Below are positions 4,518 to 48,659 of a DNA stretch of 50,472 nucleotides, one piece after another. Position 1 is the first letter of the stretch. Every line of letters begins with the position of its first letter. The stretch spans positions 1 through 50,472 of the forward strand of contig JACPMG010000019.1 in assembly GCA_016186095.1 (NCBI GenBank), read 5' to 3'. The notes under the pieces were generated by a model. The model did no database searches and was not told the DNA's origin. It saw only the letters and a list, made by a program, of their open reading frames with translations. This stretch comes from Candidatus Sungiibacteriota bacterium (GTDB taxonomy: Bacteria > Patescibacteriota > Minisyncoccia > Sungbacterales > HO2-52-23). The position numbers were made by a program, and so were the translations under genes.

Positions 4518-6046
4518 TACTTTGGTCTCATAGTCGGGAATAAAACCACCTCCCTAATATTTTTCGTATTTGTAAAAAGCATTATTAATCTATCTACGCC
4601 TATCCCAAGTCCTGCTGTAGGCGGCATGCCGTACTCCATCGCCTCCAAGTAATCCTCATCAATGCGGTGCGCTTCTTCTTCCCCGCCACCGCGCATTTTC
4701 TCCTGCTCCTCAAAACGGCTACGCTGATCAAGCGGGTCGTTTAATTCCGCAAACCCATTGGTAAGCTCTACCCCAGCAACAATAAGCTGAAAACGGCGCA
4801 CTTCAGCAGGATTTTCAGGGCGTCTTTTGGAAAGGGGCGAAATATCGATAGGGTGATTGACCACAAACGTGGGCTGAACGATATATGGCCGGCATACTTT
4901 TTTATATATTTCATCGGCAATTTTACCTTTGGATTCGTGCTTCCCAACCTCAATGCCAAGTTGCCGCGCCCGCGTGGCCAGAGAATCGCGCGTCTCACGC
5001 TCGTAATCGGTAATAAGGGCGTAGCGCGAGAGAAGGTCTTTGAAAGCAACCCGCGCAAAAGGTTTTTTGACGATAATTTTTTTACCTTCTCCGCCAGAGG
5101 CGGATCCCTGCCCGACCGGCAGGCGGGCACCTTGGGCGGAAAACTCAATTTCCTGCTTCCTGCCTGCCTGCGCAGGCAGGCCAAACATTTTGGCAAGCGA
5201 AATAAACATCTCCTCAACAAATTTCATCATATCATTTTCGTCCCAGTAGGCCGCGTAGCACTCAAGCATAGTAAACTCCGGATTATGCGTGACATCAATG
5301 CCCTCATTACGAAAGATCTTACCAATCTCATATATTTTTTCCAGTCCGCCGACCAAGAGCCGCTTCAAATAAAGTTCCGGCGCGATCCGCAAGTATAAAT
5401 CAACATCAAGGGCGTTGTGATGGGTTTGAAAGGGCTTGGCAAGAGCGCCTCCGGCAAGCGGATGCAGCATCGGAGTTTCCACCTCCAGAAATCCGTTTTT
5501 TTTAAAAAAATTCCGCAGAGTTTTAATAATCTCTGACCGCACCTCAAAACGTGTCCTTATTTCCGGGTTCATCAAAAGATCCAGGTATCTTTTACGGAAT
5601 CGCTCCTCCACGTCCTGCAATCCGTGCCATTTCTCCGGCAACGGCCGCAGGGATTTAGCCAGCATCTTCCACTCTCCTACCTCCAGCGTTTCCTCGCCTT
5701 TTTTGGTTTTAAAAAGTTTGCCCTCAACTTCAAGGAAATCGCCAATATCTATAACCTCGAGAGCAAGATCATAATTTCCCCCCAACACATCCTTTTTTAG
5801 AAAAAGCTGGATTTTGCCAGATGCGTCACGCACATCCAAAAACATAGAACCCCCATGCTCGCGCTTGGCCATAATGCGCCCCGCAATGACAACTTTCTTT
5901 TTTGATTTGGCAAAAGCAGAAAATTTCTTCAAAACCTCCGCAATGGCCAAATGCGCCCCGCTTTCAGCGGGATAGGGATCAAAGCCGCTTTTTTGCAGCT
6001 TTTCTAATTTCCTTATTCTCTCGTTGCGGATATCTTCTAAGGGCAT
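4517..6046 (-). CDS. lysS: Lysine--tRNA ligase (class II)
   Basis: LRPLPEKWHGL, YLRIAPELYLKRL, FRNEGID..HNPEFT, YGMPPTAGLGIGVDRL. Confidence 0.98.
   Translation of the reverse strand: MPLEDIRNERIRKLEKLQKSGFDPYPAESGAHLAIAEVLKKFSAFAKSKKKVVIAGRIMAKREHGGSMFLDVRDASGKIQLFLKKDVLGGNYDLALEVIDIGDFLEVEGKLFKTKKGEETLEVGEWKMLAKSLRPLPEKWHGLQDVEERFRKRYLDLLMNPEIRTRFEVRSEIIKTLRNFFKKNGFLEVETPMLHPLAGGALAKPFQTHHNALDVDLYLRIAPELYLKRLLVGGLEKIYEIGKIFRNEGIDVTHNPEFTMLECYAAYWDENDMMKFVEEMFISLAKMFGLPAQAGRKQEIEFSAQGARLPVGQGSASGGEGKKIIVKKPFARVAFKDLLSRYALITDYERETRDSLATRARQLGIEVGKHESKGKIADEIYKKVCRPYIVQPTFVVNHPIDISPLSKRRPENPAEVRRFQLIVAGVELTNGFAELNDPLDQRSRFEEQEKMRGGGEEEAHRIDEDYLEAMEYGMPPTAGLGIGVDRLIMLFTNTKNIREVVLFPTMRPK
5090..5140. 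repeat. 51-bp nested palindromic element inside lysS (SAQGARLPVGQGSASGG)
   Basis: TCCGCCAGAGGCGGATCC + CTGCCCGACCGGCAGGCGGGC + ACCTTGGGCGGA; near-identical copy at 48519-48569. Confidence 0.9.
5162..5181. repeat. 20-bp perfect palindrome inside lysS (LPAQAG)
   Basis: GCCTGCCTGCGCAGGCAGGC; a related CCTGCC-GCA-GGCAGG lies intergenic at 6134-6148. Confidence 0.85.
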
Positions 6047-6158
6047 AGCTTTATCTTATTGCACGTGGACAAAAAAGAAAAGGCGCTCTAGGAAAGGAGC
6101 AGCCGTGCGTATTTTCGAGAAAAATTGTCGAGGCCTGCCGCAGGCAGGGAACCGCGCT

Positions 6159-6611
6159 TCACCGTATCTCCGCCACTTGATATGTAATAACTCCTCCGGG
6201 AGTTTTCACCTCTACTTCATCCCCCACTTTTTTGCCCAAAAACGCTTTGCCCATTGGCGACTCATTAGAAATTTTTCCTTCTGCCGGATTGGCTTCCTCC
6301 GAACCTACAATCATATACATTTCTTCGCCGCTCTGGGATCGTACACGTACGGTGGAGCCCACCGTTACCTGATCCGTACGGTGCCCCCTGATAAGCACGG
6401 CGTTCCGCACCGTCTCCTCCAATTCGGCAATCTGCAATTCCATGAGCGATTGTTCTTCTTTGGCCTCCTGATATTCGGCATTTTCTGATAAGTCGCCCAA
6501 TGTTTTGGCATGCTCAAGTCTCGCCGCAATATCCTGGCGCTTTACGGTCTTCAGCTCCTGAAGCTCCTTCTTTAATTTTTCGAGGCCTTCCTCGGAAAGA
6601 TACTCTGACAT
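6159..6611 (-). CDS. greA: Transcription elongation factor GreA
   Basis: GDLSENAEY motif, ISNESPMGKAFLG. Confidence 0.97.
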   Translation of the reverse strand: MSEYLSEEGLEKLKKELQELKTVKRQDIAARLEHAKTLGDLSENAEYQEAKEEQSLMELQIAELEETVRNAVLIRGHRTDQVTVGSTVRVRSQSGEEMYMIVGSEEANPAEGKISNESPMGKAFLGKKVGDEVEVKTPGGVITYQVAEIR

Positions 6612-6622
6612 AGTAAAGATAA

Positions 6623-6651
6623 AGAGTAAATTAGTTCCTAAAAACTGTCAA
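6623..6651 (-). promoter_or_regulatory. Putative sigma70 promoter for greA-lysS
   Basis: TTGACA-17 nt-TACTCT on the minus strand, ending 11 nt before the greA ATG. Confidence 0.45.
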
Positions 6652-6672
6652 TATGCTTTATGCACATATGAA

Positions 6673-8592
6673 TTATTTTCTATGTTCGAAATACCATTTT
6701 AGAATTTCATTCGTAATCGGGACGGCGACCGTTGCCCCTTCACCGGCATGCTCGACCATCACGGTAATAGCGACTTCCGGATTATCCACCGGAGCAAAAG
6801 CCGTTACCCACGCATGGGGAAGTCCGGAACCCGCCTGCGCTGTGCCGGTTTTAGCCGCGGCAGAGACCGGAAGACCGGAGAGAAGTCTAGCCGTACCCGA
6901 AGTAACCGTCTTCTGCATACCCTTGATGACTTCTTTGACATTATCCTCGCTTACCATGCGCTCCCTAATAAGCTGCGGCTCCTTTTTGTCGCTCACCCCC
7001 CCATCCGCGGCCAGAACGGCATCAAGAATATAAGGCCTCCATAATTTTCCGCCGTTGGCAATAGCCGCAGTAAGAGCTGCCATCTGCAGAGGCGTCACCT
7101 TTACTCCTCCCTGTCCTATGGAAACATTATAGGTATCTCCAATACGCCAGACTGGATCCTGCGGCTCGGCTATTTTTTTTGACTCCGGGTCAGGGATAAA
7201 ACCAGCCTTCTCTCCCGGAAGATCAATGCCTAATTTTGCTCCCAAGCCGAAAGCGAGCGCGTATTTTTTAATCCGCTCAATCCCTAGGCCCTTTTGCTCC
7301 TTGAACCCGCCGCCTACCATGTAGAAATAAACATTGGCCGATTGCGCTATAGCATCATAGAAATCAACCCACCCGTGTTTCTTCCAATCAAGAAACACCG
7401 ATCTCTCGCCCGGCTTGTAAGGGTTGGGGATCTCAATGAATCCCTCATCATAAATTTTTTTTGCCGGGTCAATTATTTTTTCCTCAAGGGCCGCCGCCGC
7501 GACCAAAGGCTTGATGGTGGATCCGGAAGGGAACTCGCCGGAAATAGCCCTATTGAAAAGCGGGGCAAGAGAATTTTCCAGAACCGCCTCAAACTCTTTT
7601 CGCGAAAGAGAATTAGAAAAAATATTGCTGTCAAAACCCGGGAAACTTACCAATGTCCGTACCGATCCGTTACGCGGATCTAGTATCACCACACTTCCTC
7701 CTTTGCTCTTACCAACATAATTTTGTACCGTCTCATAGGTAACCCTCTCTAATTCGCCGTCCACGGTCAGCTTGATTTTAGAACCCTCTACGGTGTTCTG
7801 TGTAAACCGAAATCTGGTCTCTTTTCCCCGTGAGTCGATTTCAACAATTTTCTTCCCACCCACGCCTCGCAATAGGCCATCGTAAAATGCCTCGATACCG
7901 CTCTTGCCTATCGTCTCCTCAGAATTAAGATCCGGCTGCCGCTCTAAATCCTCCGGCGAAACTTTGCCTATGAATCCCAGGAGATGAGAATCAGCCAACG
8001 GTTCACGGTATATGCGCTTATAACTTTCAAAAACCTGTACTCCGGGAAAACGCTCCGGCTCAGATACTATAACCGCTACTGCGCCCCGCGGCATATCCTC
8101 CGCGAGCACGACATGTTTTGGCATTTTGCCAATATCGCCATCTACGGGGAATCCTAAATCATAAAAATACTCCCGGTCTTTACCGAGAAGCGCCCCCAAA
8201 GACGCAAGCAGTTCAGCAGGACCACCGCTTCCCTCTTTAAATTTTTCTCTGCTGAATGCCACGCCAAATGACGGCATATTTACGACCAGCGGAATATCAA
8301 AACGATCATACACCACTCCGCGCGGCGGAAAAACCGGCAATACAAAAAAACGGTTCTCTTGCGACTTTCCCAAAAAATAATCCCCCCTATGGAGCGTAAG
8401 ATCGGCCGCCGCCCAGGTGAGATACCCAACTCCGACGACAACAACCAGAAGGAAAACCGACGGGAAGAAGCGACCTATCGAACGCTCCATCTTCCCTTCA
8501 AGGTTCGAAGAAAAATGTAATTGGTCGGCCGAATCAGCAAGAATTTCATCGGGATCAAGCGGAACAACTGTTTTATTTTTGCCGAAAGCCAT
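6673..8592 (-). CDS. mrdA: Penicillin-binding protein 2 (class B transpeptidase)
   Basis: SxxK (GSTIK), SxN (SAN) and KTG motifs; PRGVVYDR and GKSGIE dimerisation-domain motifs; follows mreBCD. Confidence 0.93.
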   Translation of the reverse strand: MAFGKNKTVVPLDPDEILADSADQLHFSSNLEGKMERSIGRFFPSVFLLVVVVGVGYLTWAAADLTLHRGDYFLGKSQENRFFVLPVFPPRGVVYDRFDIPLVVNMPSFGVAFSREKFKEGSGGPAELLASLGALLGKDREYFYDLGFPVDGDIGKMPKHVVLAEDMPRGAVAVIVSEPERFPGVQVFESYKRIYREPLADSHLLGFIGKVSPEDLERQPDLNSEETIGKSGIEAFYDGLLRGVGGKKIVEIDSRGKETRFRFTQNTVEGSKIKLTVDGELERVTYETVQNYVGKSKGGSVVILDPRNGSVRTLVSFPGFDSNIFSNSLSRKEFEAVLENSLAPLFNRAISGEFPSGSTIKPLVAAAALEEKIIDPAKKIYDEGFIEIPNPYKPGERSVFLDWKKHGWVDFYDAIAQSANVYFYMVGGGFKEQKGLGIERIKKYALAFGLGAKLGIDLPGEKAGFIPDPESKKIAEPQDPVWRIGDTYNVSIGQGGVKVTPLQMAALTAAIANGGKLWRPYILDAVLAADGGVSDKKEPQLIRERMVSEDNVKEVIKGMQKTVTSGTARLLSGLPVSAAAKTGTAQAGSGLPHAWVTAFAPVDNPEVAITVMVEHAGEGATVAVPITNEILKWYFEHRK

Positions 8593-8594
8593 GC

Positions 8595-9101
8595 TTATAC
8601 CCTCTTAAATAATAAACCAAGTGCTCCGGTCAGAAAGGTAATCAAAGTTGGCAGTAAAACAGCCCATACCAACGAAGCTAAAAATACGTGACCCCAAAAT
8701 TCCCAGTAAACTGGCACAGGCAAACCGTGAACATAATCTGCCGTCCAGCCAAAAAATAAAATCAGATTAACGAATAAAATAGTGCCCATAGCAGTGCCCA
8801 CACCGCGCGTCATAAAAGACTCCGCGTGCGAAAAAATGCCCCGCAGAATTTCGGTAAAAAACGCCAAAATTATGAAAATGGCGGTGTATGTCCCGAATAC
8901 GTATAAAGATACGCTGTCCATCAACACCCCAGCCAGAATTGCCCAAAACAGCCGCCGGGATAAACCTATATTCCAGAATAAAAAAATTAGTGTGGCGCCA
9001 AAAAGCGGCGGCCGGACTTCCCATAGCGCAATCCTGCTCCCCCACGCTATTTCAATAAAGAAGGCGCCGGCTAGAAAACAAATGGCTAAAACGTATTTCA
9101 T
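8595..9101 (-). CDS. mreD: Rod shape-determining protein MreD
   Basis: Hydrophobic multi-TM protein with GVLMDS..FG motif between mreC and mrdA. Confidence 0.8.
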   Translation of the reverse strand: MKYVLAICFLAGAFFIEIAWGSRIALWEVRPPLFGATLIFLFWNIGLSRRLFWAILAGVLMDSVSLYVFGTYTAIFIILAFFTEILRGIFSHAESFMTRGVGTAMGTILFVNLILFFGWTADYVHGLPVPVYWEFWGHVFLASLVWAVLLPTLITFLTGALGLLFKRV

Positions 9102-9874
9102 GGCGCCGGATGCATGACAAATACCTGATTCAAAAATTCAGGACGGGCAATATGTATCGCCCGTACTTCATAAAAGGCAGAGGCGGACGGCGGCTTCTCC
9201 TGTACAATCTCACCTATCACAAAAGGATATCTCCCCTTAGAGGATGCGAGAAGTACAGCATCTCCGCGTCTAATTATCTCGTCCGCCGGAATCAATTCCA
9301 GCAAAAACGCATGTGACCCCAGGCCTTTGGCTAAAACCCGCAATCTGGAAGGAAGCAACTCAACTTCAATACTTTCTCCGAAGCTGGAAGCAACCACTAC
9401 TTTAGCCGATATGTCTCCCGCTTCCCGCACCGTGCCTATAAAAACGCGGTTTTCATCAATCACTAAATCTCCCTGAGAGATGCCGTCATTTCTGCCGGCG
9501 TCGAGAAGCAAGAATTCCCGTCCTGCTTCACGACCGTGAAGAAGCACACGAGCCCCCTTAAGAGTCAGTCCGGAATCTTGACGAAAGGAGAAGACCTTTT
9601 TAAGCGCTTCATTCTCCGCTTGTAATTTTTTTACCTCTACATTTTCTGTCTTGAGACGCTGATTTTCGCGAATCAAGCTATCTGCCTCTGTGCCGGTAAG
9701 CGTCTCCCTGCTGGAAATCCTGCGGACCTGATTAATGATGCCGATCAGCGGTTTTATTGCCGCAAGCGACATCGTCTGCACCCTCCGTAAGATTGCCGAG
9801 TCATTAAAAAAAATCAGCAGCCCCAAAAGGAGCGCTATGACAAGAAATAAAGTTGACTTCCCTCTCCACGCCAT
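9098..9874 (-). CDS. mreC: Rod shape-determining protein MreC
   Basis: TM anchor, coiled coil (ENQRLK...ENEALKK), LLDAGRNDGI beta domain; follows mreB. Confidence 0.9.
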   Translation of the reverse strand: MAWRGKSTLFLVIALLLGLLIFFNDSAILRRVQTMSLAAIKPLIGIINQVRRISSRETLTGTEADSLIRENQRLKTENVEVKKLQAENEALKKVFSFRQDSGLTLKGARVLLHGREAGREFLLLDAGRNDGISQGDLVIDENRVFIGTVREAGDISAKVVVASSFGESIEVELLPSRLRVLAKGLGSHAFLLELIPADEIIRRGDAVLLASSKGRYPFVIGEIVQEKPPSASAFYEVRAIHIARPEFLNQVFVMHPAP

Positions 9875-9888
9875 GAAAAAATCATAAT

Positions 9889-10941
9889 TTATGCAGGTGC
9901 TTTTTCGAAACTCGTGCTAACCAAAACTTCCCGCAACGAATCGATATCCTCCAGAATTATTCCCGTACCGCGCACTACTGCCGTCAAGGGATCTTCCGCA
10001 ACCTTGGCCGGAATTTTTGTCTCCTCGCTAATCAGATGGTCAAGTCCGCGCAGAAGCGACCCGCCGCCGACGAGCATTATGCCACGATGCATAATATCGG
10101 CGACCAGCTCCGGCGGAGTCTCCTCAACCGTAGCTTTTATCGCATTCACCAAGACATTAATCGAGTGACGAAGCGCGCGGCGGATATCAGCATCATCTAC
10201 CACAACTTCCTTAGGAAGTCCAGTCACTAAATCTCTTCCTCTCATAGTAGCCTCCATCAGATCCGGAAGCTCATAAGCCGACCCTATGGCGATTTTGATG
10301 TCCTCGGCGGTGCGCTCGCCGATCAAAAGCTTAAATTCATCACGCGCGAAGCGGATAATGTCATCATTGAATTTATCCCCCGCTACTTTAAGGGCGCGGG
10401 AGACCACTATACCGCCAAGAGAAATCACCGCAATATCCGTTGTGCCGCCGCCGATATCAACCACCATGGAGCCCACGGCCTCCTGCACGGGCAAACGTAT
10501 ACCAATAGCCGCGGCCATGGGCTGTTCCACCAGGTATACCTCCCGCGCTCCTGCGTTTTTGGCGGCATCCTCGACGGCGCGTTTCTCAACTTCCGTGACA
10601 CCCGACGGAATACCAATTACCACTCGCGGCCGCGCAAAAAGCGAAAAAGTTTCTTCGTGTACCTTTCTGATAAAGTATTTCAGCATCTCCTCGGTAACTT
10701 CAAAATCCGATACCACGCCGCCTACCAGCGGTCTTACGGCGGTAATATAAGCAGGGGTACGCCCGACCATTCTTTTAGCCTCCGCGCCTATGGCCACGAG
10801 CTGCCCGGTCTTTTGGTTTACCGCCACCACCGAAGGCTCATTAATCACAATGCCTCGTCCGCGCACATAGACGAGCGTGATGGCCGTCCCAAGATCAATC
10901 CCTACATCTTGAGAAAAATAAGCGAAGACTTTATTAAACAT
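9889..10941 (-). CDS. mreB: Rod shape-determining protein MreB
   Basis: [27 protein letters not shown] actin-fold motifs. Confidence 0.97.
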   Translation of the reverse strand: MFNKVFAYFSQDVGIDLGTAITLVYVRGRGIVINEPSVVAVNQKTGQLVAIGAEAKRMVGRTPAYITAVRPLVGGVVSDFEVTEEMLKYFIRKVHEETFSLFARPRVVIGIPSGVTEVEKRAVEDAAKNAGAREVYLVEQPMAAAIGIRLPVQEAVGSMVVDIGGGTTDIAVISLGGIVVSRALKVAGDKFNDDIIRFARDEFKLLIGERTAEDIKIAIGSAYELPDLMEATMRGRDLVTGLPKEVVVDDADIRRALRHSINVLVNAIKATVEETPPELVADIMHRGIMLVGGGSLLRGLDHLISEETKIPAKVAEDPLTAVVRGTGIILEDIDSLREVLVSTSFEKAPA

Positions 10942-10944
10942 GGG

Positions 10945-12225
10945 CTATATTACTCGTTTCAACAGTTCTTTTTCGGATATTATCTTTCCCTCCTTTTCCG
11001 ATCTTTTTTTCACTTCAATTCCGCGCGCCGCTATGGTTTTCTCTGAAACCACCGCCCTCCAGGGGGCCCCTATTAAATCCGCATCGGCAAATTTCTCGCC
11101 CGCTGATTTGTCATCGCGATCATCGTACAGGACCTCCACCCCTTTGGCAAGAAGAATTTTATAGAACTTTTCCCCGCCCACAGCAGTGGGCGAGGCTCGC
11201 CCAGCTTTGCTGGGCGGCGCTTTCTTTCCGCCATCAAGGACAATCAAGTGAACCTTAAACGGCGCCGTTGATTCCGGCCACATAATTCCCAGGCCATTGC
11301 TGTGTATTTCCACAACTGTCGCCATCAGGCGGCCAAGGCCGATACCATAGCTTCCCATAACTACTGGCTTCTTTACGCCCTTCTCATCAGAGTACAGAAG
11401 TCCCATGGGAATCGAGTATTTCGTACCAAGTTTGAAAATGTTGCCCACCTCAATGCTTTTGGCCGACTTAACCATCTCTTTACATTTTGGGCACGCATCG
11501 CCCTCCTTCATTGATGAGATTTCCCTGTTTTGGGCGTAGCGGCATTTGGAACAGTAAAATATTATATCTTCTCCTGCTTCACTAAACACCTGATATTCAT
11601 GCGTAAATTCTTTGGTAAATGCGCCTCCAGATGCTTCGGCAACATAGGCGTCAAGATCACAACGTTTGAAAATTTTTTTATAGGCCCCGTCAACAATTCG
11701 GTAAAACCGATCCAGATCTTTTTCATCTCGGTGAAAACTGTACATATCCTTCATCAAAAACTCCCGACCGCGTATCAGGCCGGATTTGGCGCGCAACTCG
11801 TCCCGGAATTTATTTTGAAATTGATAGACGTATAAAGGCAAGTCTTTATAGGACTGAATTGATCGCAACGCAATTTCTGCAAGCGCTTCTTCGTGAGTCA
11901 TGGCAAGACCAACCTCCCGACCAGAATGATCCTTAAACTGATACATAGGCTCTCGGCCAAGCTCCTCCCACCGACCTGTTTTCTCCCAACGCTCTTTGGG
12001 CTGCAATGATGTGAGCAAAAGTTCCTGGCCACCGACACTATTCATTTCTTCCCGTACAATGGCGCGTATTTTCTCAAGCACCTTCAGCCCCAACGGCAAG
12101 TAATCGTAAACCCCGGCCATAGTTTTATAGATAAAACCACCTCGCTCCAGAAGCTTGGCATTTACGGCCACCTCGTCTTTGGGCGCCTCACGCAATGTTT
12201 TTCCAAAAAGTTGAGATTGACGCAT
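10945..12225 (-). CDS. proS: Proline--tRNA ligase (short form lacking the editing domain)
   Basis: MRQSQLF start, THEE, KFRDELR...GLIRGREFLMKD, GSYGIG, GEKFADADLIG. Confidence 0.96.
   Translation of the reverse strand: MRQSQLFGKTLREAPKDEVAVNAKLLERGGFIYKTMAGVYDYLPLGLKVLEKIRAIVREEMNSVGGQELLLTSLQPKERWEKTGRWEELGREPMYQFKDHSGREVGLAMTHEEALAEIALRSIQSYKDLPLYVYQFQNKFRDELRAKSGLIRGREFLMKDMYSFHRDEKDLDRFYRIVDGAYKKIFKRCDLDAYVAEASGGAFTKEFTHEYQVFSEAGEDIIFYCSKCRYAQNREISSMKEGDACPKCKEMVKSAKSIEVGNIFKLGTKYSIPMGLLYSDEKGVKKPVVMGSYGIGLGRLMATVVEIHSNGLGIMWPESTAPFKVHLIVLDGGKKAPPSKAGRASPTAVGGEKFYKILLAKGVEVLYDDRDDKSAGEKFADADLIGAPWRAVVSEKTIAARGIEVKKRSEKEGKIISEKELLKRVI
11175..11216. repeat. Double-hairpin palindromic insert in proS (PPSKAGRASPTAVGG)
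   Basis: CGCCCAC-AGCA-GTGGGCG, linker AGGCT, CGCCCAGC-TTT-GCTGGGCG; same architecture as the serS insert at 3026-3064. Confidence 0.8.
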
Positions 12226-12323
12226 AAGACAATTGTATAAGAAATGATTTAAGCTGTGTACTTGACTATATAAATATGCTATGATCTATTATGCTGAGCT
12301 ACCGAGGATACGGGTTTCCTGAG

Positions 12324-12332
12324 ATTATAGCA
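12324..12332 (-). promoter_or_regulatory. Extended -10 promoter element upstream of proS
   Basis: TGCTATAAT on the minus strand in the intergenic region. Confidence 0.5.
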
Positions 12333-12386
12333 CAAAACGGCCACCATCAGCCGTTTCTTTAATTTAACTCCGATTCAAATATGCCA

Positions 12387-12623: not shown

Positions 12624-12641
12624 AGTTTGAACATATACCTC

Positions 12642-21259: not shown

Positions 21260-21392
21260 GTATTATCTTCCCCAACTGCTTGATGGGCTGGACTTGGCAC
21301 CGTGTCAAGCTACCAGTAACCAGTTACCAGTAACTAAATCGGTTGTCGGCGGATCACAGAGCCAGTGCTCTCCCCGCGCTCTTGATAAATAC
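21260..21392 (-). ncRNA. SAM-I (S-box) riboswitch
   Basis: Minus strand reads TTATCAAGAG...GGAGAGCACTGGCTC..TGATCC..GACAACC...GGTGCCAAGTCCAGC...GAAGATAA, the SAM-I consensus, upstream of metK. Confidence 0.9.
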
Positions 21393-30508: not shown

Positions 30509-30658
30509 GATGCGGTTTCCTCGCCAATATGCTTTTTCAACACGTCTTGGCCGCTCCCGCGGCGGCCTGCGCTAATAGTCGGATGCGGTTTCCGCCTTCG
30601 GCGGACCAAGCAAACCGCATCCTCCATTGTCTCAAAAGCATATTGGCTCGACCGCATC
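30509..30658 (-). repeat. Structured ~150-nt element, copy A
   Basis: Minus strand has the conserved blocks ACAATGGAGGA, GCTTGGT, GACTATTAGCG and CGTGT and the same stem layout as copies at 36764, 42576 and 45328. Confidence 0.9.
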
Positions 30659-36763: not shown

Positions 36764-36917
36764 TGTAGGCGGTCGAGACAATATGGTTTCGAGACAATGG
36801 GAGGAGCGATTTGCTTGGTTCCGCCAAAGGCGGAAAATCGCGACGACCATTAGCGAGCTCGCCGCTGGAGCGAGCGAGTCGTGTCTCGAAACCATATTGT
36901 CAAGGAAACCGCCTACA
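36764..36917 (+). repeat. Structured element, copy B
   Basis: TGTAGGCGGT/ACCGCCTACA outer stem and a 20-bp GACAATATGGTTTCGAGACA/TGTCTCGAAACCATATTGTC stem; overlaps the murA stop codon. Confidence 0.9.
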
Positions 36918-41168: not shown

Positions 41169-41205
41169 ATAAAATAACGGGGTTTGAGCCCCGCTATTTT
41201 ATTTA
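41166..41205. terminator. Bidirectional terminator between convergent ABC and rpsI genes
   Basis: TAAATAAAATA-A-CGGGG-TTTGAG-CCCCG-C-TATTTTATTTA. Confidence 0.7.
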
Positions 41206-41212
41206 CTTACAT

Positions 41213-41776: not shown

Positions 41777-41777
41777 A

Positions 41778-42128
41778 TTACCTTTCAGCTCTCAAAAGAA
41801 TAAGATTTTTTATATAACGCGCGCGGAGCTTGTTCTTCGGCAACATGCCCATAACCGCTTTACGCAAAACCTCGCACGAATCGCGCGCGAGGAGTTCCCG
41901 CAGTTTTTCTTCTCTAAGTCCTCCGTGGAATCCGGAGTGGCGCCGATAAAGTTTTTGCGTAAGCTTCTTTCCGCTTACCCGTATTTTATCCGTATTAGAA
42001 ATGATCACCCGGTTCGCGGTGAATTTTGCAGGATCAAAACCGGGATTGTTTTTCCCGCGCAAAAGTATTGACACTTCAGTGGCAAGCCGTCCTAGAATTT
42101 TATCGGTTGCATCAATTTTATATTCCAC
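41778..42128 (-). CDS. rplM: 50S ribosomal protein L13 (short form)
   Basis: IDA..KILGRLA, YRRHSG..GG, AVMGMLPKNKL; GTG start. Confidence 0.96.
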   Translation of the reverse strand: MEYKIDATDKILGRLATEVSILLRGKNNPGFDPAKFTANRVIISNTDKIRVSGKKLTQKLYRRHSGFHGGLREEKLRELLARDSCEVLRKAVMGMLPKNKLRARYIKNLILLRAER

Positions 42129-42129
42129 G

Positions 42130-42190
42130 AGCTTTTAGCTTTTAGCTTTTAGCTTTTAGGTCCGCTCCTAGAAGCTATAAGCTGGAAGCT
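42130..42190. repeat. Heptamer palindromic array (AGCTTTT)x4 plus inverted units, filling the rplQ-rplM spacer
   Basis: agctttt x4 ... agaagct ataagct ggaagct. Confidence 0.8.
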
Positions 42191-42536
42191 ATTTAACCAA
42201 TTCAATTATGGCCATTTTCGCTCCATCACTAATCCTTACGCCCAATTTTACAATCCTCGTATATCCGCCGGCTCGTCCGGAAAACGTCCGCCCAAGCTCC
42301 ATGATTTTTTTTACCACAGCGGGCGCAAAAAGTTTTCGAAACAATCTCCCGTTGGCAGGCGCGGGGTTCTTGGCCCGCGTAATAAACTTTTCCACGAATG
42401 GGCGCAATTCCTTGGCCTTAGCCTCCGTGGTCTTAATCCGCCCCAGCATAAAAAATGAAGAGGCCAGACTCTTCATAAGCGCGCGCCTTTGATTTCTCTC
42501 TCTTCCAAATTTTCTACCTTTCTTAAGGTGTCGCAT
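42189..42536 (-). CDS. rplQ: 50S ribosomal protein L17
   Basis: MRHLKKGRKFGR, IKTTEAKAKE, R.GGYTRI; true start at 42536. Confidence 0.97.
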   Translation of the reverse strand: MRHLKKGRKFGRERNQRRALMKSLASSFFMLGRIKTTEAKAKELRPFVEKFITRAKNPAPANGRLFRKLFAPAVVKKIMELGRTFSGRAGGYTRIVKLGVRISDGAKMAIIELVK

Positions 42537-42575
42537 ATTTATCTCCCACACTTCTAGCTTGGGAAGTTTTTTAAT

Positions 42576-42729
42576 GAGGCGGGTGGCGGCTATTTCGTCT
42601 GCAAACAATGGAGGATGAGATTTGCTAGGTTCTGCGCAAGCGCAGAAAATCTCATCCGACTATTAGCGAGGTTTACCGCTGGAGTAAACCAAGCGTGTTT
42701 GCAAACGAAATAGCCGCTGTAACCCGCTC
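42576..42729 (+). repeat. Structured element, copy C
   Basis: GCGGCTATTTCGT.TGCAAACA/TGTTTGCA.ACGAAATAGCCGC stem with conserved loops; abuts the rpoA stop. Confidence 0.9.
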
Positions 42730-43691
42730 TATTGTTTCAAAGTAATCCCAAAATTTCCCAACGCTTTTTTCACTTCCTGAATCCCTTTATCCCCCATCCC
42801 TTCAATACCGCGCAAGGTTGACTCTTTTTTACGAGAAAGTCCGCCCACGGTCTTGATACCCGCCTCTCGCAGCGCATTCAAAGTACGGCTGGAAAACTTA
42901 AGCTCATCAAGCTTAACCTTAAACGCCGACTCGTCAAGAATACCTTCTTTGTTTTCGTCCGCCGCCTTTTCTGTAATCCCCGCCGTATCGCGGAGTTTTA
43001 CCGCTGCTTCTGCAAACCCTTCGCCCAAAGCGCCAAATTGCTCGACAAGAATCTGCGCCGCTTTGGTAAATGCTTCACGCGGAGCGAGCGACCCATCCGT
43101 CTCGATGTCAAAACGTACAAGATTGTAATCTATCCTATCCCCCACGCGCATATTTTCCACCGCATAATTCACATGCCGCACCGGGGAAAACGCGGCGTCC
43201 AAGGCAATAGTCCCCACTTCTACTTTTTCTTTGGTACGGGCCTCGGCCGGAACGTAGCCGAATCCGGACTCCACAATCGCCTCCGCCTCAAACTTCGCTT
43301 TCTTTGAGGTAAGCGTTGCTATGTGAATATTAGGAGTCACCAACTCGACTTGAGATGGAATTTTAAAATCTTTGCCCTTTACTTCTTTCTCGCCGCTTGC
43401 CGAAATCGTTATGGTGAAAGGACCTTCCTCGTACAGGCGGAAACGCATCTGCTTTAAATTTAAAATCAAATCCACCATATCCTCCTTAATTCCCTCCATT
43501 GTTGAAAATTCGTGCCCCACGCCGACGATTTTTACCGCCGTCAAAGCAGCGCCCTTTATGGAGGAAAGGAGAACCCGGCGAAGACTATTGCCGATGGTCT
43601 GGCCGTAACCCGGATACAATCCTTCAATTTCAAAAACCGCGCGATTTCCTTCTTCAGATACTACCTTTGGCTTAGATGGAAGTGAGATCAT
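42729..43691 (-). CDS. rpoA: RNA polymerase alpha subunit
   Basis: GYGQTIGNSLRRVLLSS, HEFST, DAAFSPV, alpha-CTD (FSSRTLNAL); start at MISLP. Confidence 0.97.
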   Translation of the reverse strand: MISLPSKPKVVSEEGNRAVFEIEGLYPGYGQTIGNSLRRVLLSSIKGAALTAVKIVGVGHEFSTMEGIKEDMVDLILNLKQMRFRLYEEGPFTITISASGEKEVKGKDFKIPSQVELVTPNIHIATLTSKKAKFEAEAIVESGFGYVPAEARTKEKVEVGTIALDAAFSPVRHVNYAVENMRVGDRIDYNLVRFDIETDGSLAPREAFTKAAQILVEQFGALGEGFAEAAVKLRDTAGITEKAADENKEGILDESAFKVKLDELKFSSRTLNALREAGIKTVGGLSRKKESTLRGIEGMGDKGIQEVKKALGNFGITLKQ

Positions 43692-43704
43692 ACCACGCAA
43701 GACA

Positions 43705-43767
43705 TAAAATATAAGTTTTAAGATATAAGTTCAAACTGACAACTTATAACTTAAACCTTATACCTAT
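43705..43767. repeat. Heptamer palindromic array (TATAAGT-type) in the rpsD-rpoA spacer
   Basis: ataaaat ataagtt ttaagat ataagtt ... aacttat aacttaa accttat acctat. Confidence 0.6.
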
Positions 43768-43768
43768 T

Positions 43769-44389
43769 TTATCTTGAATAAAACTCTTTTATCTTTGTCA
43801 CATCGGCCGTAAGTTCGACCCCTTCCGGAAGGGGGTTGGAAACGACTGTGCCTTCCTTGCGTGAACTGTCAAGCGCAAGCCAGGCAGGTGCTTGATATTT
43901 TTTAAGCCGCTGCTCAAGTTCGCCCAAAAATCCTTTTCGGAGCGATCTTTCTTTAAACGCTATTATCTCTCCTTTTCTCACACGATAAGAAGGAATAGTA
44001 ACCGTCTTTCCGTTCACTGTTATATGACCGTAGCTCACGAGGTGTCTTGCCGATCTTCGCGATTCAGCAAACCCCAAACGAAACACTGCATTATCCAGCC
44101 GGCGCTCTAAAAACTCCAGGAAATAGGAACTAAAAACGCCCGGACGTCTGGCGGCCTCTTCAGTATAGCGCTTTACGTCTTTATCGTCAAGGCCGTATAA
44201 AAATCTGACTTTCTGCTTCTCCCGTAGAAGTCCCGCAAATTCGGAGGCTCCGCGTCTTCTTGCCTTGCCATGGACTCCGGGAGGAAAACCGCGGCGTATC
44301 AAGGCGCATTTGGGACCAGAACAACGCTCCGCTTTTAGGCCGAGTTTTTCTCCGAGACGCCGTTCTACTTTTTCTAATATTTTAGGCAT
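43769..44389 (-). CDS. rpsD: 30S ribosomal protein S4
   Basis: PPGVHG, LREKQK, LERRLDN.VFRLG, VSYGHI.VNG, EFYSR. Confidence 0.97.
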   Translation of the reverse strand: MPKILEKVERRLGEKLGLKAERCSGPKCALIRRGFPPGVHGKARRRGASEFAGLLREKQKVRFLYGLDDKDVKRYTEEAARRPGVFSSYFLEFLERRLDNAVFRLGFAESRRSARHLVSYGHITVNGKTVTIPSYRVRKGEIIAFKERSLRKGFLGELEQRLKKYQAPAWLALDSSRKEGTVVSNPLPEGVELTADVTKIKEFYSR

Positions 44390-44406
44390 AAGATAATGCA
44401 ACGTCA

Positions 44407-44847
44407 TCAGACGCGCCTCACTTTCTTCGGCCGCGGACCATTATGCGGCAGAGGAGTTATATCTTTTATGGAAGTCGTGTTGAGTCCCTGGTTGGCAAGA
44501 GCGCGAATCGCCGAATCCCTTCCCGAGCCAACCCCACTTACTAAAACAGAGACCTCTTCAAGCCCGTATTTTCTGGCTTTTTCCACAACTGTTTCAGCAA
44601 CACGGGCAGCGGCAAAAGGCGTTGCTTTCTTGGCTCCCGAAAACCCAAGCGAGCCGGCCGATGACCAAGCCACTGCATCGCCCTTCTCATCGCTAATAGT
44701 GATAATCGTATTATTATACGTCGCCTGAATATGGGCTATACCGCGCGCAATACGTTTACGTGCCTTAACTTGACGCGGCTTTACCGCGATACCTTCTTTG
44801 GCCTCACCAGCCACTTCACTTTTTTGTATGACGCGTTTTTTACCCAT
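44407..44847 (-). CDS. rpsK: 30S ribosomal protein S11
   Basis: [27 protein letters not shown]. Confidence 0.98.
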
Positions 44848-44854
44848 GATTTTT

Positions 44855-44918
44855 ACTACGAATTACGAATTGTACGAAAGTACGAATTCGTATATTCGTA
44901 AGATTCGTTATTCGTAGT
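44855..44918. repeat. Palindromic TACGAA/TTCGTA array in the rpsM-rpsK spacer
   Basis: Four TACGAA units followed by four inverted ATTCGT units. Confidence 0.8.
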
Positions 44919-45305
44919 CTACGTAGGGCTTGCCGCCGGTTTTCTCCCCGACCCCATGGTCTTTCTCACATTTCCCCTGCGCGTACGCGAATTGGTTTTA
45001 GTCCTTTGCCCCCGTACCGGAAGCCCGCGGATATGCCTTGACCCGCGATAAGTTGAAAGTTCACGCAGACGCTTAATATTCGTCATGATCTCACGGCGCA
45101 AATCCCCTTCTATTTTATGACTCTTTTCAATAATCTCACGAAGGCGATTAACCTCCTGAGCGGTCAGGTCTTTGGCGCGTTTTCCGGAATCGACTTGGGC
45201 CTGTTTTACAATTTTTCTCGAAGATGACAATCCGATCCCGTAAATATACGGAAGCGCATACTCAATTTTTTTGTTATCGGGAATGTTTATACCTGCGATA
45301 CGCAT
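44919..45305 (-). CDS. rpsM: 30S ribosomal protein S13
   Basis: [29 protein letters not shown]. Confidence 0.98.
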
Positions 45306-45327
45306 ACTTTTATTTTCCTTTTCCTAT

Positions 45328-45500
45328 ATTGCAAGCCGTTAGGTCGAACCGATATGTTTTCGAGACAATGGAGGATGCGGTTAGCATGGTTCCCGCTATA
45401 AGCGGGATAACCGCATCCGACTATTAGCGAAGTTTTGTCGCTGGACAAAACAAGCGTGTCGAGAAAACATATCGGCGAGGACACCTTAACGGCGAGCAAT
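45328..45500 (+). repeat. Structured element, copy D
   Basis: GCCGTTA/TAACGGC, CCGATATGTTTT/AAAACATATCGG, GGATGCGGTTA/TAACCGCATCC stems with conserved loops; abuts the rpmJ stop. Confidence 0.9.
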
Positions 45501-45613
45501 TACCCCTGCCTTTGTTTATGCTTCGGATTCGTACAAATAATAAATAATCGGCGTTTGCGCCGGACCAATTTACACTTTGCGCACATAGGTTTTACGGATG
45601 CTCGTACCTTCAT
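45500..45613 (-). CDS. rpmJ: 50S ribosomal protein L36 (not in the ORF track, 37 aa)
   Basis: Translates [37 protein letters not shown]. Confidence 0.98.
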
Positions 45614-45634
45614 CGTCGCTTTGCTCCTCATATG

Positions 45635-45737
45635 ATGCAAATCTACAAATTTTATGCCAATCTACCAATCACTAATAACTGGCATAAACCGATTCGCGAT
45701 TAGCAAAATTGGCATTAAATTCGCATCGGATTGGCAT
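45635..45737. repeat. Degenerate palindromic array (ATGCNAAT/ATTNGCAT units) in the infA-rpmJ spacer
   Basis: atgcaaat ctacaaat...atgccaat ctaccaat ... attggcat...attcgcat...attggcat. Confidence 0.6.
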
Positions 45738-45952
45738 CATTTAAGTCGATGCACTATCCTTCCTTTGGTCTCATCATACGGCGTCATCTCCACGCGCACT
45801 CGATCTCCGGGAAGCACCTTAATATGATGCAGGCGCATTTTCCCGGAAAGATGGGCAAGAATCTCTCTCCCATCGTCCAGCTTGGCCTTAAAAAGGGTGC
45901 CCGGAAGATTTTCGAGCACGATCCCCTCCTGGAATATGTTATTTTTCTTCAT
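45737..45952 (-). CDS. infA: Translation initiation factor IF-1
   Basis: ENLP...F...L, AHLSGKMR, PGDRVRVEMTPYD..KGRI. Confidence 0.97.
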   Translation of the reverse strand: MKKNNIFQEGIVLENLPGTLFKAKLDDGREILAHLSGKMRLHHIKVLPGDRVRVEMTPYDETKGRIVHRLK

Positions 45953-46004
45953 ATAAATCGCCTGAAAGACAGTTTACTATATCCGTATTTAAGAGTCAAT
46001 AGGG

Positions 46005-47348
46005 TCATTCCTTTCTTATAAAATGGATTTTGGCAGAGTCGCTTGGCGCGTTAAAAAGCCAAGGCGGGAAAAAGGCGACATTGAAACTCGCCAGCTCCGC
46101 CCTGCTTTTAAGAACTTCTATCATCGACCCCTCTTTCTTGCCAACCAGAAGCAGGGAAAGTTCCTCCTCCGGCACAACCGACTCTACTTTTACATCGCCC
46201 CGTATCACCATGGTGGCCCGTTTTTTGCCGTATTCGACACTTCGCGACTGATACTCCACGCGAAACGAATCTTCGATCACTTTTCTCTTCATCTCTCCTT
46301 TAAGCACAACTTCCTTGAGAAAAGTCCGCATATCTTGTTCGCGGAACATAATCGCTCTCCCGCTCGCTTCCGCTTCCACCGAAAAACTGTCTCCCCGCGT
46401 ACCGGCCCGCGGAGAAGTCACTTTGACAATTTGAATCTCGCGCAACGCGTCAATCAACAGCAATCCCGAAGGAACTTTACGCGACATCTCTTCTTTTAAT
46501 TCATCAAATGCCTGCTTGGTTACCTGCTCTTCCGCTTTTTTAATATCATCTTGGGAAACAACGCGCGCCTCACCTCTAAACCCGCCGGCAAACCCGGATT
46601 TGACGATCGCATAAAAACTGTCATATTTGGCCGTACCTTTAAAACCAGGAATGGTTAATTTAAGCTCTCCGGATAAATTGGAGTCCTCTCCGGATTTGTC
46701 GGCCATCAGTTCCGCCTCAATCGAATTGGGCACAATCTTTCCTTCTTCTATTTTCGCGCCAGGGATCAATATATTTTTGGAAAGCCGAAAAAGCATTCCT
46801 GATTCGGTCAAAAAGCGCGTCCCCTCAACAAGTGTTTGCGGAGAAGAGCTGAATTTGTTGTAAATTTCAACTTTCCCGCGGGCCTTTTCCTCTATAAATT
46901 TCTTGCCACTTGATTCAAACTCCGCCCGCGCTTTCTTGGAAAACTCAAAAGCCTCCGCCGGGATAACCTGCTGGGCAATAAGCGGACGGGAAACCGATGC
47001 GTCAAGCGCAACCGATAGGTCCTGGAACGACACGCTCTCCACGCGCGGCCTAATCACCACGGTGAGACGCGCAAATACGGTTGAGAGAAGAATCGCGATT
47101 ACCAGAACAATGACACCGCCGCTGGCCATACCCCAAAAAAGAAGCGGTCTTCGAGCTGGACGAATCTCCTCTTTAATATCGGGCGCCAGTACATCTTCTT
47201 TGCCCGACTCCCTATGAGCGGCTGCCTCCTCATCGCGAAAACGGGAGAGCCATTCTTCTCCTTTCATTCTTCCCTCCTCCGCGGCCTTGTTTGACCGCTT
47301 GGTAGGAGAGCTTCCTTTTTTTCTTATGCCGTCGGTTATTTTACTCAC
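46005..47348 (-). CDS. Membrane-anchored protein with baseplate J/gp47-like domain
   Basis: TM then KARGKVEIYN....Q.LV.GTRF...G..F......IPG, A...G...N, GF.GG pattern. Confidence 0.65.
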   Translation of the reverse strand: MSKITDGIRKKGSSPTKRSNKAAEEGRMKGEEWLSRFRDEEAAAHRESGKEDVLAPDIKEEIRPARRPLLFWGMASGGVIVLVIAILLSTVFARLTVVIRPRVESVSFQDLSVALDASVSRPLIAQQVIPAEAFEFSKKARAEFESSGKKFIEEKARGKVEIYNKFSSSPQTLVEGTRFLTESGMLFRLSKNILIPGAKIEEGKIVPNSIEAELMADKSGEDSNLSGELKLTIPGFKGTAKYDSFYAIVKSGFAGGFRGEARVVSQDDIKKAEEQVTKQAFDELKEEMSRKVPSGLLLIDALREIQIVKVTSPRAGTRGDSFSVEAEASGRAIMFREQDMRTFLKEVVLKGEMKRKVIEDSFRVEYQSRSVEYGKKRATMVIRGDVKVESVVPEEELSLLLVGKKEGSMIEVLKSRAELASFNVAFFPPWLFNAPSDSAKIHFIRKE

Positions 47349-47353
47349 GAAAA

Positions 47354-47440
47354 CACACTAATCCACTTATTTTTACACTAATCCACGAATCACGAATATG
47401 TATTGGTGGATTGGTATGAGTCATTGGTGGATTTGTGTAC
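47354..47440. repeat. Intergenic palindromic array, same family as 16566-16645
   Basis: ACACTAATCCAC x2, CACGAAT, then inverted GTGGATT units. Confidence 0.75.
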
Positions 47441-47444
47441 AGAT

Positions 47445-48659
47445 TTACCCGAATAAAGGCGCGTGATCTCTGGAATACACGATGAGTGATGCAAGCCCCG
47501 CGTCCTCCGGTCCGGTTAAAAATCCTCCTAGCGTCTCCCCTCCAAAGAAATTCTCCGCGCGCAGTATCTGTACCTCCGGCGATGACACGTATGAAAAGCC
47601 GCCTATCCAGTCCGGCTTACGCACGGCATCCGCAATCTCCGCTAAATATGCGCCCCCGCCAAAAAGCAGTACTCGCGCGGGCAAAGGCCCTGTCGCATAG
47701 AAAGAATCGAGACTGGAAAGAAACATTTTTTTCCAATGCTCCGCCTCCTCTTTTAAAAATAAGCCCAATTCGCTCTTCTTGACAACGCCTACTCCTCCTG
47801 CCGCGTACTGGCGTTTCAAGTCGTCGGCCTCGTCAAAAGAAATTGAAAGCGTTTTGGCCGTACCGCGTACGAAGTGGTGCGCCCCAAAAGGAAACGATGC
47901 GACTTGCGCTATGGCTCCGTCTTTTAAAAGAGCCAGCGCCGTTTCCTCCCCGCCAATGTCTATCAAAAAAGCATCCGCTATCCCTAGGCCTTTTGGTATG
48001 CTCTCCTGATATGTGGCGGCAAGGGGCATAAATTCTATAGGCAGTCCTCCTAGACTTTGTTTGGCAGAGGCCAAAGCCGTTCCTATTTCCCCCTGGAAAT
48101 AAAGAAGCATCGTCTGAAAACCAACCGCACCTTTAACCGGTATCTTCTCCTGCGCGCTCCGGGGAATGATACGGTATTCATTCATCAACACGCCCAATGG
48201 ATACGCAACCAGCGCGCGCCCGGAGTCATGCTTCTGCTCAAAAAGGTTTTGAAAATATATGCCGAGCTCGCGGCGCGAAACAGAATTTTTTTTAGGAAGG
48301 TTTCCGCCGACAGTCCAGGTAGCGAGCGATGTATCCGCCAAATAAGCGCCCAGGGCGATGGTGATAACGGAAGGAACCCGGCCAAGTTCTTTTAAAGTCG
48401 AAAATAAAATCTCCCGCAGTTGTGTCACCACCCGCGCGGGATCCGGCGCGGAGGAGAATTTAAAAGCCGTCTTTTTGATAATCTTGGGCTTGGGCACCGC
48501 AATGTTACCGGACATTTCTCCGCCAAAGACGGATCCCTGCCCGACCGGCAGGCGGGCGCCTCCGGCGGAAAAAACAACGGTTTTTATGGAATGCGAACCC
48601 ACATCAATAACCGCCCGGAGATTTGGACTTTCACGCCTAAATAAATCATACCAAGCCAT
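47445..48659 (-). CDS. FtsA-like actin-fold ATPase (divergent)
   Basis: IDVGSHSIK, LIDIGGEET, FPFGAHHF, A..LK..Y, LFGGGAYL. Confidence 0.75.
   Translation of the reverse strand: MAWYDLFRRESPNLRAVIDVGSHSIKTVVFSAGGARLPVGQGSVFGGEMSGNIAVPKPKIIKKTAFKFSSAPDPARVVTQLREILFSTLKELGRVPSVITIALGAYLADTSLATWTVGGNLPKKNSVSRRELGIYFQNLFEQKHDSGRALVAYPLGVLMNEYRIIPRSAQEKIPVKGAVGFQTMLLYFQGEIGTALASAKQSLGGLPIEFMPLAATYQESIPKGLGIADAFLIDIGGEETALALLKDGAIAQVASFPFGAHHFVRGTAKTLSISFDEADDLKRQYAAGGVGVVKKSELGLFLKEEAEHWKKMFLSSLDSFYATGPLPARVLLFGGGAYLAEIADAVRKPDWIGGFSYVSSPEVQILRAENFFGGETLGGFLTGPEDAGLASLIVYSRDHAPLFG
48519..48569. repeat. 51-bp nested palindromic element inside the ftsA-like gene (SAGGARLPVGQGSVFGG)
   Basis: 28-nt core CGGATCCCTGCCCGACCGGCAGGCGGGC identical to lysS 5101-5128. 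Confidence 0.9.

Follow-up and report, generated by a model that had tools for sequence, protein, structure and literature searches.

What is the same short palindromic unit doing, in one and the same reading frame, inside two unrelated genes of a groundwater bacterium with a very small genome? The question is raised by a stretch of 50,472 nucleotides from Candidatus Sungiibacteriota (Patescibacteriota; JACPMG010000019.1, positions 1 to 50,472, here called the window), which is the whole of contig C8 of a 680-kb, 32-contig genome (genome label G000), and in which a 51-base unit is present once in lysS and once in a gene for an FtsA-like protein (Table 1). Close LysS homologues carry names that place the genome in Candidatus Sungbacteria, a lineage of the Parcubacteria/CPR. 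The unit is very probably made up of two mobile mini-elements that form hairpins and are non-autonomous, the one being nested within the other. On this reading, the outer element is a 30-base double hairpin, composed of two TCCGCC-NRA-GGCGGA hairpins joined at a GGATCC centre, which inserts precisely between TTY and RAA without duplicating its target, such TTY/RAA sites being offered by tRNA T loops, by anticodon loops and, within genes, by codon pairs for Phe-Glu or Phe-Lys. The inner element, a GC-rich hairpin of 21 bases, also moves alone and, where an outer element is already resident, tends to land right next to its GGATCC centre. As both elements are multiples of three in length and, in their usual phase, encode small, flexible residues, those that lie in surface loops of essential proteins seem to be translated and to be tolerated as selfish DNA, and not to be kept for a host function.

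The 51-Base Units of the Window

The two units agree at 46 of 51 bases and, as an earlier reading of the sequence alone had noted and as direct comparison of the two stretches bears out, have an identical 28-base core (5101-5128, equal to 48530-48557). The 21-mer CTGCCCGACCGGCAGGCGGGC occurs exactly twice in the window, with 0 occurrences expected from 100 dinucleotide shuffles. Both units lie within open reading frames (ORFs) on the minus strand, the translations of which read ...FSAQGARLPVGQGSASGGE... in LysS and ...FSAGGARLPVGQGSVFGGE... in the FtsA-like protein, so that the claim of a common frame also stands. A third nested copy is found elsewhere in the genome, at C13:22554-22604, in an open frame just upstream of a ribosomal protein L23 domain.

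The symmetry of the unit is somewhat less strict than that first description had it. The 21-base part is indeed a hairpin, but an imperfect one and not a true palindrome, with a CCTGCC/GGCAGG stem that overlaps a GCCCG/CGGGC stem. The TCCGCC-nnn-GGCGGA double palindrome is the correct outer form, although its arms are imperfect in the second copy (GACGGA). The lack of stop codons in the frame used is real but carries little weight, since all six frames of the fixed positions are stop-free owing to the GC-rich DNA. The central proposal, that the 21-base unit sits at one point of the 30-base unit, survives intact: each form also exists alone, the 30-base form without an inner unit and the 21-base unit by itself, which supports the 51-base unit as a nested composite with the inner unit inserted at one defined point.

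Table 1. Positions in the window of the composite elements, their parts and their host genes
Feature	Positions	Strand	Description
lysS (lysine--tRNA ligase, class II), 509 aa	4517..6046	-	Assigned by profile, homologue and orthologue comparisons
Composite in lysS	5090..5140	.	Outer double hairpin (5090-5107 + 5129-5140) carrying the inner 21-mer; gene strand encodes SAQGARLPVGQGSASGG, LysS 303-319
Inner 21-base hairpin, CGACC variant	5108..5128	+	Follows immediately on the outer element's GGATCC centre
Separate 18-base perfect palindrome CCTGCCTGCGCAGGCAGG in lysS	5163..5180	.	Contributes GLPAQA at about residues 290-295
FtsA/PilM-type actin-fold ATPase gene, 404 aa	47445..48659	-	Assigned by Pfam, homologues and structure model
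Composite in FtsA/PilM-type gene	48519..48569	.	Encodes SAGGARLPVGQGSVFGG, residues 31-47
Inner 21-base hairpin	48537..48557	+	Identical to the 5108-5128 copy

Precise Insertion into Two Housekeeping Genes

The LysS of the window scores 624 bits against the NCBIfam lysine--tRNA ligase profile and is 509 residues long, as compared with 485-488 residues for most of its close orthologues. Through the region in question its homologues read ...F-G-KKQ-EIE-F-E-GKK..., and among 119 close ones only two proteins, P0007 and P0035, carry a related insert there; at the DNA level, the element is present at this site in 0 of the 29 same-family orthologues that were read. The empty lysS site is TTT GAA both in the closest orthologue (G006, 76% identity) and in G020, where the window has 51 bases between the TTT and the GAA. 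The FtsA-like protein matches Pfam FtsA with 50.5 bits, and its structure model, with a predicted local distance difference test score (pLDDT) of 86.8, matches FtsA and PilM chains about equally (TM 0.57-0.69). Its five closest homologues (56-66% identity) read VVFE and have no insert, and the empty site in G007 is once more TTT GAA. The filled and empty sequences are compatible with only one placement of the insert, exactly between the TTT and GAA codons, which means that no target-site duplication was made. Alignment with orthologues, the check that had been suggested together with the original observation, thus reveals the insert of 17 residues in both proteins.

The predicted structures agree with this. 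In the FtsA-like model the sole segment with a pLDDT below 50 covers residues 36-52, a loop between two strands. In the case of LysS, alignment with the solved chain 3a74 is interrupted between residues 285 and 330, and the model, of moderate overall confidence (pLDDT 72.1), has low confidence at residues 291-298 and 301-319 as well as in several other regions, so that it supports only the statement that the inserts are not predicted to fold confidently. Mapped onto the two models, as the sequence-only reading had proposed, the inserts are low-confidence loops in both.

The lysS junction was also followed in four groundwater sequencing runs of one study, which possibly include the source sample and are therefore not independent: a contig of run X1 spans it, contigs of X2-X4 enter the repeat from both sides, and a lysS variant without the insert is absent from the contigs of all four runs. 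An assembly artefact, which reads had been expected to expose if there was one, is rejected on these grounds, the junctions being backed by contigs from four runs and the elements being present in many independent assemblies. The k-mer contigs of X2-X4 end within the repeat core (window 5098-5128), and their loose ends lead to the flank of the ftsA-like copy.

The same comparisons bear on the idea that the units are not mobile DNA at all, and that a peptide motif or linker was selected in each protein by convergent evolution. A Gly/Ser/Ala-rich peptide would suit well as a flexible linker, but unrelated genes, and differently labelled metagenome-assembled genomes (MAGs), use the same codons down to the single letter, copies are also found in tRNA genes and between genes, and orthologues without the insert exist. 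Having been tested, neither this explanation nor that of an artefact is supported, and the pair of them is barely credible.

The LysS site appears to have been filled repeatedly. In a FastTree phylogeny of 120 LysS sequences (midpoint root, variable region masked), the protein of the window (P0001) groups with the insert-free P0003 and P0004 with a support of 0.958, and P0007 and P0035 fall into other clades, the deeper nodes having a support of 0.68-0.70. In P0007, the site in LysS is likewise occupied by a double hairpin, the inner unit of which is another one (LPAQAG) but is set in at the same point. The tree suggests at least three gains at one LysS codon junction, or else many precise losses.

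Further hairpins are found in the vicinity. The separate 18-base palindrome of lysS (Table 1) is a second, independent insertion, located between F and G where orthologues read F-G-K-K; it is of the same CCTGCC...GGCAGG hairpin kind as the inner 21-mer, and an identical copy lies at C26:12603-12620. LPAQAG-type inserts are present in the LysS of P0007 and also of P0025. The same LysS loop holds unrelated palindromic inserts at loci L304 (G006) and L306 (G008) and in proteins P0010, P0028 and P0037 (SDLDRSYRGPTSRH; VGNSQLGNSVSNLETEFPSS). Since both of these other inserts are inverted repeats at the DNA level, the loop would be a hot spot for several hairpin families.

The Outer Element and Its Target Site

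The outer element, TCCGCCnnnGGCGGATCCGCCnnnGGCGGA, occurs without the inner unit in 10 exact copies in this genome, and in 20 copies if up to 4 mismatches are allowed; the genome-wide count of simple and nested forms that the sequence-only reading had proposed therefore stands at 10 exact simple copies and 3 nested ones. Its host genes encode GyrB, an HhH-GPD glycosylase, a class-V aminotransferase, ArgRS, IF-2, a sigma factor, an M17 peptidase, an Mfd-like helicase, a CCA/poly(A) polymerase, DnaJ, and ATP synthase a and alpha, and one copy lies at the end of L4. With at most 1 mismatch, 17 of 41 related genomes contain the element, and each of the five families sampled is represented among them; the reversed control sequence gives 0 matches everywhere.

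Its distribution reaches far beyond the order. A scan with one genome per species, in which all 24 fixed bases were to match exactly, gave at least 126 stretches, 80 of which were fetched; by their labels, 38 belong to the candidate phyla radiation, 34 to other phyla and 8 are unnamed. The other-phylum labels include Gammaproteobacteria (9), Omnitrophota (6), Kiritimatiellae (4) and Ignavibacteriota (3, two of them on contigs of more than 1.6 Mb). Deep inside long open frames lie 23 of the 80 cross-phylum copies and 7 of 13 copies of this genome. Carriage by phages was considered and rejected, as a collection of viral contigs gave just 2 exact matches.

The target site and the shape of the element were derived from 143 non-redundant copies, that is, 286 half-sites. 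Of the three flanking bases, the first is T in 62% of cases, the second T in 84%, and the third T (62%) or C (24%); TTT is found at 105 of the 286 half-sites, whereas its background in the genome is 3.7%. Where one locus has both an intact and an interrupted tRNA copy, what separates the two is exactly the 30 bases. Insertion is site-specific, at TTY/RAA, and takes place without target duplication. The stems are conserved and the loops vary, being NRA on the left and TYN on the right, which means that each strand starts with the same hairpin, TCCGCC-NRA-GGCGGA.

Fully symmetric loops are present in only 15 of the 143 copies. The copies of two genomes of one genus are of another kind: 8 of 8 in G027 and 9 of the 11 listed for G031 are perfect palindromes, and the symmetry there looks as if it was created or restored at each copying. 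The loop triplets of these near-all perfect 30-base palindromes are AGA/TCT, GAA/TTC, GGA/TCC, ATA/TAT and AAA/TTT.

At window 6134-6148, 30591-30605 and 36820-36834, intergenic single hairpins of these kinds are present, namely CCTGCCGCAGGCAGG, which is upstream of lysS, and the half-elements TCCGCCTTCGGCGGA and TCCGCCAAAGGCGGA; the hairpin at 30591 lies within a larger inverted repeat of about 30580-30625.

The Inner Element and Nesting

With up to 1 mismatch the inner 21-mer is found in 13 of the order's 62 genomes, the CGTCC variant being the usual form. Fifteen of the 20 copies listed have no double-hairpin arms and lie alone inside other genes; the other five are the three of this genome, one of G022, and one (L028) among other GC-rich hairpins. 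In ORFs of more than 250 aa, 9 of 11 inner copies read ARLPDGQ. A metagenome scan for the GGATCC centre followed by the 21-mer gave 118 stretches, and 67 of the 80 fetched are full composites (up to 3 mismatches) in many different genes, the pattern, which required GGATCC on the left, favouring nested copies.

Two sets of loci capture the nesting itself. In the N-terminal extension of ribosomal protein S9 encoded by rpsI at L218, a simple and a nested copy stand side by side with identical outer loops (TGA and TTT), the difference between them being the 21-mer. At L216 and L230, which have common flanks and the same derived GGTGGA change in an outer arm, the inner unit is to one side of the centre in the first locus and to the other side in the second, with its orientation reversed. 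The inner unit can thus nest in place, into a resident outer element.

Whether it did so three times in this genome is a different matter, as the three copies might instead stem from transposition of a ready-nested 51-base composite. All three inner copies of this genome are nested and none stands alone, and all three are of the CGACC variant, which is the rarer one and is present at only 4 of 80 metagenome loci; composites are common in many genes, as the scan above indicates; and the composite RNA is predicted to fold into one long hairpin (-34.5 and -38.5 kcal/mol for the two window copies). The composite may therefore have moved as a unit within this genome, which tells against separate insertion of the 21-mer as proposed above. 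On the other hand, all 5 differences between the two window copies fall on the 30 outer positions and 0 on the 21 inner ones, which hints that their inner units are younger than their outer elements, the numbers being small and not significant alone; nesting took place in situ at the loci just described; and the LysS of P0007 carries its different inner unit at the very same point of the double hairpin. Movement as a unit is thus a serious contender, to which we would give a little less than an even chance.

Reading Frame and Fate of the Inserts

The frame in which the elements are read was determined for copies with at least 60 open codons on each side. Among cross-phylum simple copies, 21 of 23 are in the phase that reads TCC GCC (SAxGGSAxGG), with p values of 1e-8 under a null of 1/3 and 2.7e-4 under a null that accounts for the phase of the target. 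The corresponding numbers are 18 of 21 for composites (1e-6 and 3.9e-3) and 7 of 7 for this genome (5e-4 and 0.017). The frame bias that the earlier description had put up for checking is thus found in all three sets, part of it being an effect of the target. It has to be noted that this part, which speaks against a strong reading of the bias, is considerable: a TTY/RAA junction that falls one base into a codon creates TGA or TAA, so that much of the bias follows from the target, and 56% of the TTY/RAA sites in the long ORFs of this genome already have their junction at a codon boundary.

Translation of the insert is probably its likeliest fate, in view of the residual frame excess, of the multiple-of-three lengths and of the coding-like drift of old copies. 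Among the sequencing runs that hold lysS, an RNA data set was looked for and not found. The alternative is that the insert is removed from the message or skipped in translation, as in the case of mitochondrial bypass elements, which would leave the proteins unaltered. The mRNA hairpins of the window copies are predicted to be very stable (z of -3.7 and -4.2, respectively), but the length is in all cases a multiple of three, phase 0 is in excess even against the target-phase null, and older copies drift in the manner of ordinary coding sequence, as exemplified by P0035. This explanation is therefore regarded as highly improbable.

The Candidate Partner Enzyme

Two kinds of enzyme genes in this genome were considered as partners. 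The first are three genes for Y1 transposases, which are flanked by hairpins of other sequence in each case (TACCGGACT.AGTCCGGTA, TGGACGCTCCGCGTCCA and ACGAGGCCGGGCCTCGT); as all three have hairpins other than those of the elements described here, Y1/RAYT transposases are rejected as partners. These RAYT-like genes, at L006, L007 and L008 on contigs C1, C4 and C28, have a perfect hairpin of their own each, one of which is repeated inside the ORF, and the Y1 hairpins appear to be separate families in the same small genome, similar to the repetitive extragenic palindromic (REP) sequences.

The second kind are five small ORFs of 78-94 amino acids with a GIY-YIG domain (Pfam PF01541, 40.8-59.5 bits). 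Their size is that of Ssn nucleases (single-domain GIY-YIG proteins of roughly 80-100 amino acids). According to Chenal et al. 2025 (PMC11893778), those nucleases cleave DNA in single-stranded form, at the hairpin that belongs to them and irrespective of its loop; the conserved stems and variable NRA/TYN loops found here fit such loop-independent cleavage. On contig C32, two direct copies of GGTTC-[TCAGCCAAAGGCTGATTCGCCTCCGGCGAA]-GAATCC enclose one of the five genes and an intact gene for tRNA-Asn. The repeat is a variant double hairpin, and its place is precisely the T loop of another tRNA-Asn-like gene, a broken one, which also contains a CCTGCC...GGCAGG hairpin as well as, in its anticodon loop, a double hairpin that has decayed. 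This tRNA-Asn-like gene (C32:46520-47090; L003 1220-1800) carries three hairpin insertions in all, after the D arm, in the anticodon loop and in the T loop, and is split by the cassette of intact tRNA-Asn and 80-residue GIY-YIG gene, which is bounded by direct repeats of 41 bases.

Such genes are widespread, small GIY-YIG genes being present in 53 of the 62 genomes of the order, and double hairpins of this type bound 5 of the first 30 GIY-YIG loci fetched, or 5 of 48 in all. In the bounded loci the hairpins sit in tRNA loops, at TT/AA or TTC/GAA, and the insertion is of exactly 30 bases. These cassettes make a small single-domain GIY-YIG nuclease that would recognize the hairpin in single-stranded DNA the best candidate for the partner, which is a tentative lead, unproven, and one that we would rather doubt than trust.

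A number of observations weigh against the proposed explanation, and in particular against this part of it. Within this genome only the C32 gene, one of five, is flanked on both sides, and 0 of 18 further GIY-YIG loci are flanked in G031 and G027, which are the genomes richest in elements, and in G034, G021, G039 and G006. A GIY-YIG gene lies within 450 bases of 2 of 80 exact simple copies and of 1 of 30 control LysS loci, which amounts to no enrichment; near composites there is such a gene in 0 of 80 cases and near inner-element loci in 0 of 20. Nor does the number of elements in a genome go with that of its GIY-YIG genes. Among solved structures the nuclease is closest to UPF0213 proteins (1ywl, 1zg2) and then to SLX1, and NCBIfam provides no name for four of the five proteins and only a sub-threshold one for the fifth (group I intron endonuclease, 22.5 bits with a cut-off of 56). 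The published SRM motif, the repeat associated with Ssn nucleases, matches 0 of 13 copies, and the genome has 1 match to it as compared with 1-9 in 10 shuffles. The copy counts themselves include related copies, only those with near-identical flanks having been removed. GIY-YIG enzymes cut DNA, and we know of no basis for an insertion step.

Some of these observations would be expected if the elements spread without any dedicated enzyme, through the action of host replication and repair on hairpins (template switching, gene conversion), the GIY-YIG cassettes being merely a preferred landing place. Most copies then need no nuclease gene nearby, the element-richest genomes need no flanked one, and the perfect palindromes of G027 and G031, with their differing loops, look as if they had been made or corrected by fold-back. 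However, the same 24 fixed bases and the same TTY/RAA target in MAGs labelled as many phyla point to sequence-specific recognition, and precise insertion at unrelated sites without homology is hard to obtain from repair alone. Spread of this kind is considered unlikely.

Relation to Known Repeat Families

The sequence-only reading had likened the unit to Rickettsia palindromic elements (RPEs), only much shorter and nested, a comparison that fits repeats of 30, 21 and 51 bases that lie in frame in unrelated genes. RPEs, as summarized in PMC10969869 from Ogata et al. 2000 and 2002, are about 150 bp long and were described in Rickettsia; in that summary they are likewise palindromic, in frame, in unrelated housekeeping genes and in a reduced genome, with a conserved peptide that seems compatible with the fold of the host protein. 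The elements described here differ from that description in their length, which falls short of the roughly 100-150 bp of RPEs, in their presence with the same sequence in MAGs labelled as many phyla, in their TTY/RAA target without duplication, and in their nesting.

The likeness to the Ssn nucleases and their SRM/NTS repeats lies, as PMC11893778 describes them, in a single-domain GIY-YIG gene located between hairpin repeats of 20-50 bases, which are also dispersed and the stems of which matter. In contrast to Ssn loci, few of the nuclease loci here are flanked (see above), the cassettes sit in tRNA loops, and stand-alone copies lie inside genes; a term search of PMC11893778 gave 0 occurrences of "tRNA" and of "intragenic". 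The REP/REPIN-RAYT systems, as described in PMC3116915 and PMC3733652, have short GC-rich palindromes, often as doublets, which are dispersed and non-autonomous, as is the case here; unlike in those descriptions, no GTAG/CGTC tag is visible at the ends, and the copies here are often intragenic and in frame, REPs being mainly extragenic. The GC clusters of fungal mitochondria, as characterized in PMC4478555 (Wu and Hao 2015), are similarly GC-rich, with conserved stems, variable loops and merged forms, and occasionally lie in a protein gene (var1/rps3), but they are organellar, mostly intergenic and flanked by AG or ACT repeats, whereas no duplication is found here.

From a classical miniature inverted-repeat transposable element (MITE) the elements differ in that the whole element is the inverted repeat and in that there is no duplication at lysS, at the ftsA-like gene or at two tRNA loci. 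Fungal double-hairpin elements were reportedly described by Paquin et al. in 2000, and cyanobacterial small dispersed repeats, said to be palindromes of 21-27 bases that nest within each other, by Elhai et al. in 2008. The cyanobacterial repeats differ from the elements described here in sequence and in host. The element behaves like RPEs, REPs and mitochondrial GC clusters but does not seem to be a member of any of them; from RPE, REP/RAYT, SRM and classical MITE it departs in at least one defining feature each. The literature searched, which did not extend to the supplements of the Ssn paper with their repeat-rich genomes, holds no description of such elements in Patescibacteria and none of a link between RPEs and GIY-YIG nucleases.

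A broader and more speculative model would unite several of these systems. In it, both hairpins would be recognition sites of small GIY-YIG nucleases, and together they would form a mobile system of hairpin plus nuclease present in many phyla, which would have its home in tRNA loops (TTC/GAA and TT/AA), with hairpins spilling over into Phe-Glu and Phe-Lys codon pairs and so providing essential proteins with ever more loops, in the smallest genomes as well, and of which RPEs and Ssn/SRM repeats would be local faces. As a whole, this model is doubtful, and somewhat more so than the GIY-YIG partnership taken by itself.

Implications

A genome of 680 kb, which has shed most of its metabolism, still has hairpin DNA in at least 15 genes (13 with Pfam names, lysS and the ftsA-like gene), which bears on the question of how streamlined such genomes are. 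The same 24 fixed bases in MAGs labelled as different phyla imply a conserved recognizing enzyme, frequent transfer or both, neither of which is described for these elements in the literature searched. Should the partner indeed be a GIY-YIG nuclease, each variant of the hairpin would mark a new single-strand-specific cutter, of a kind that is sought as a tool. In practical terms, the inserts shift protein lengths, break profile alignments and split k-mer assemblies at the repeat core, and they offer datable presence/absence markers for uncultivated lineages.

As for the remainder of the window, Rfam and tRNA scans added a single feature, a SAM riboswitch aptamer at 21260-21391 on the minus strand (Rfam RF00162, 57.2 bits).

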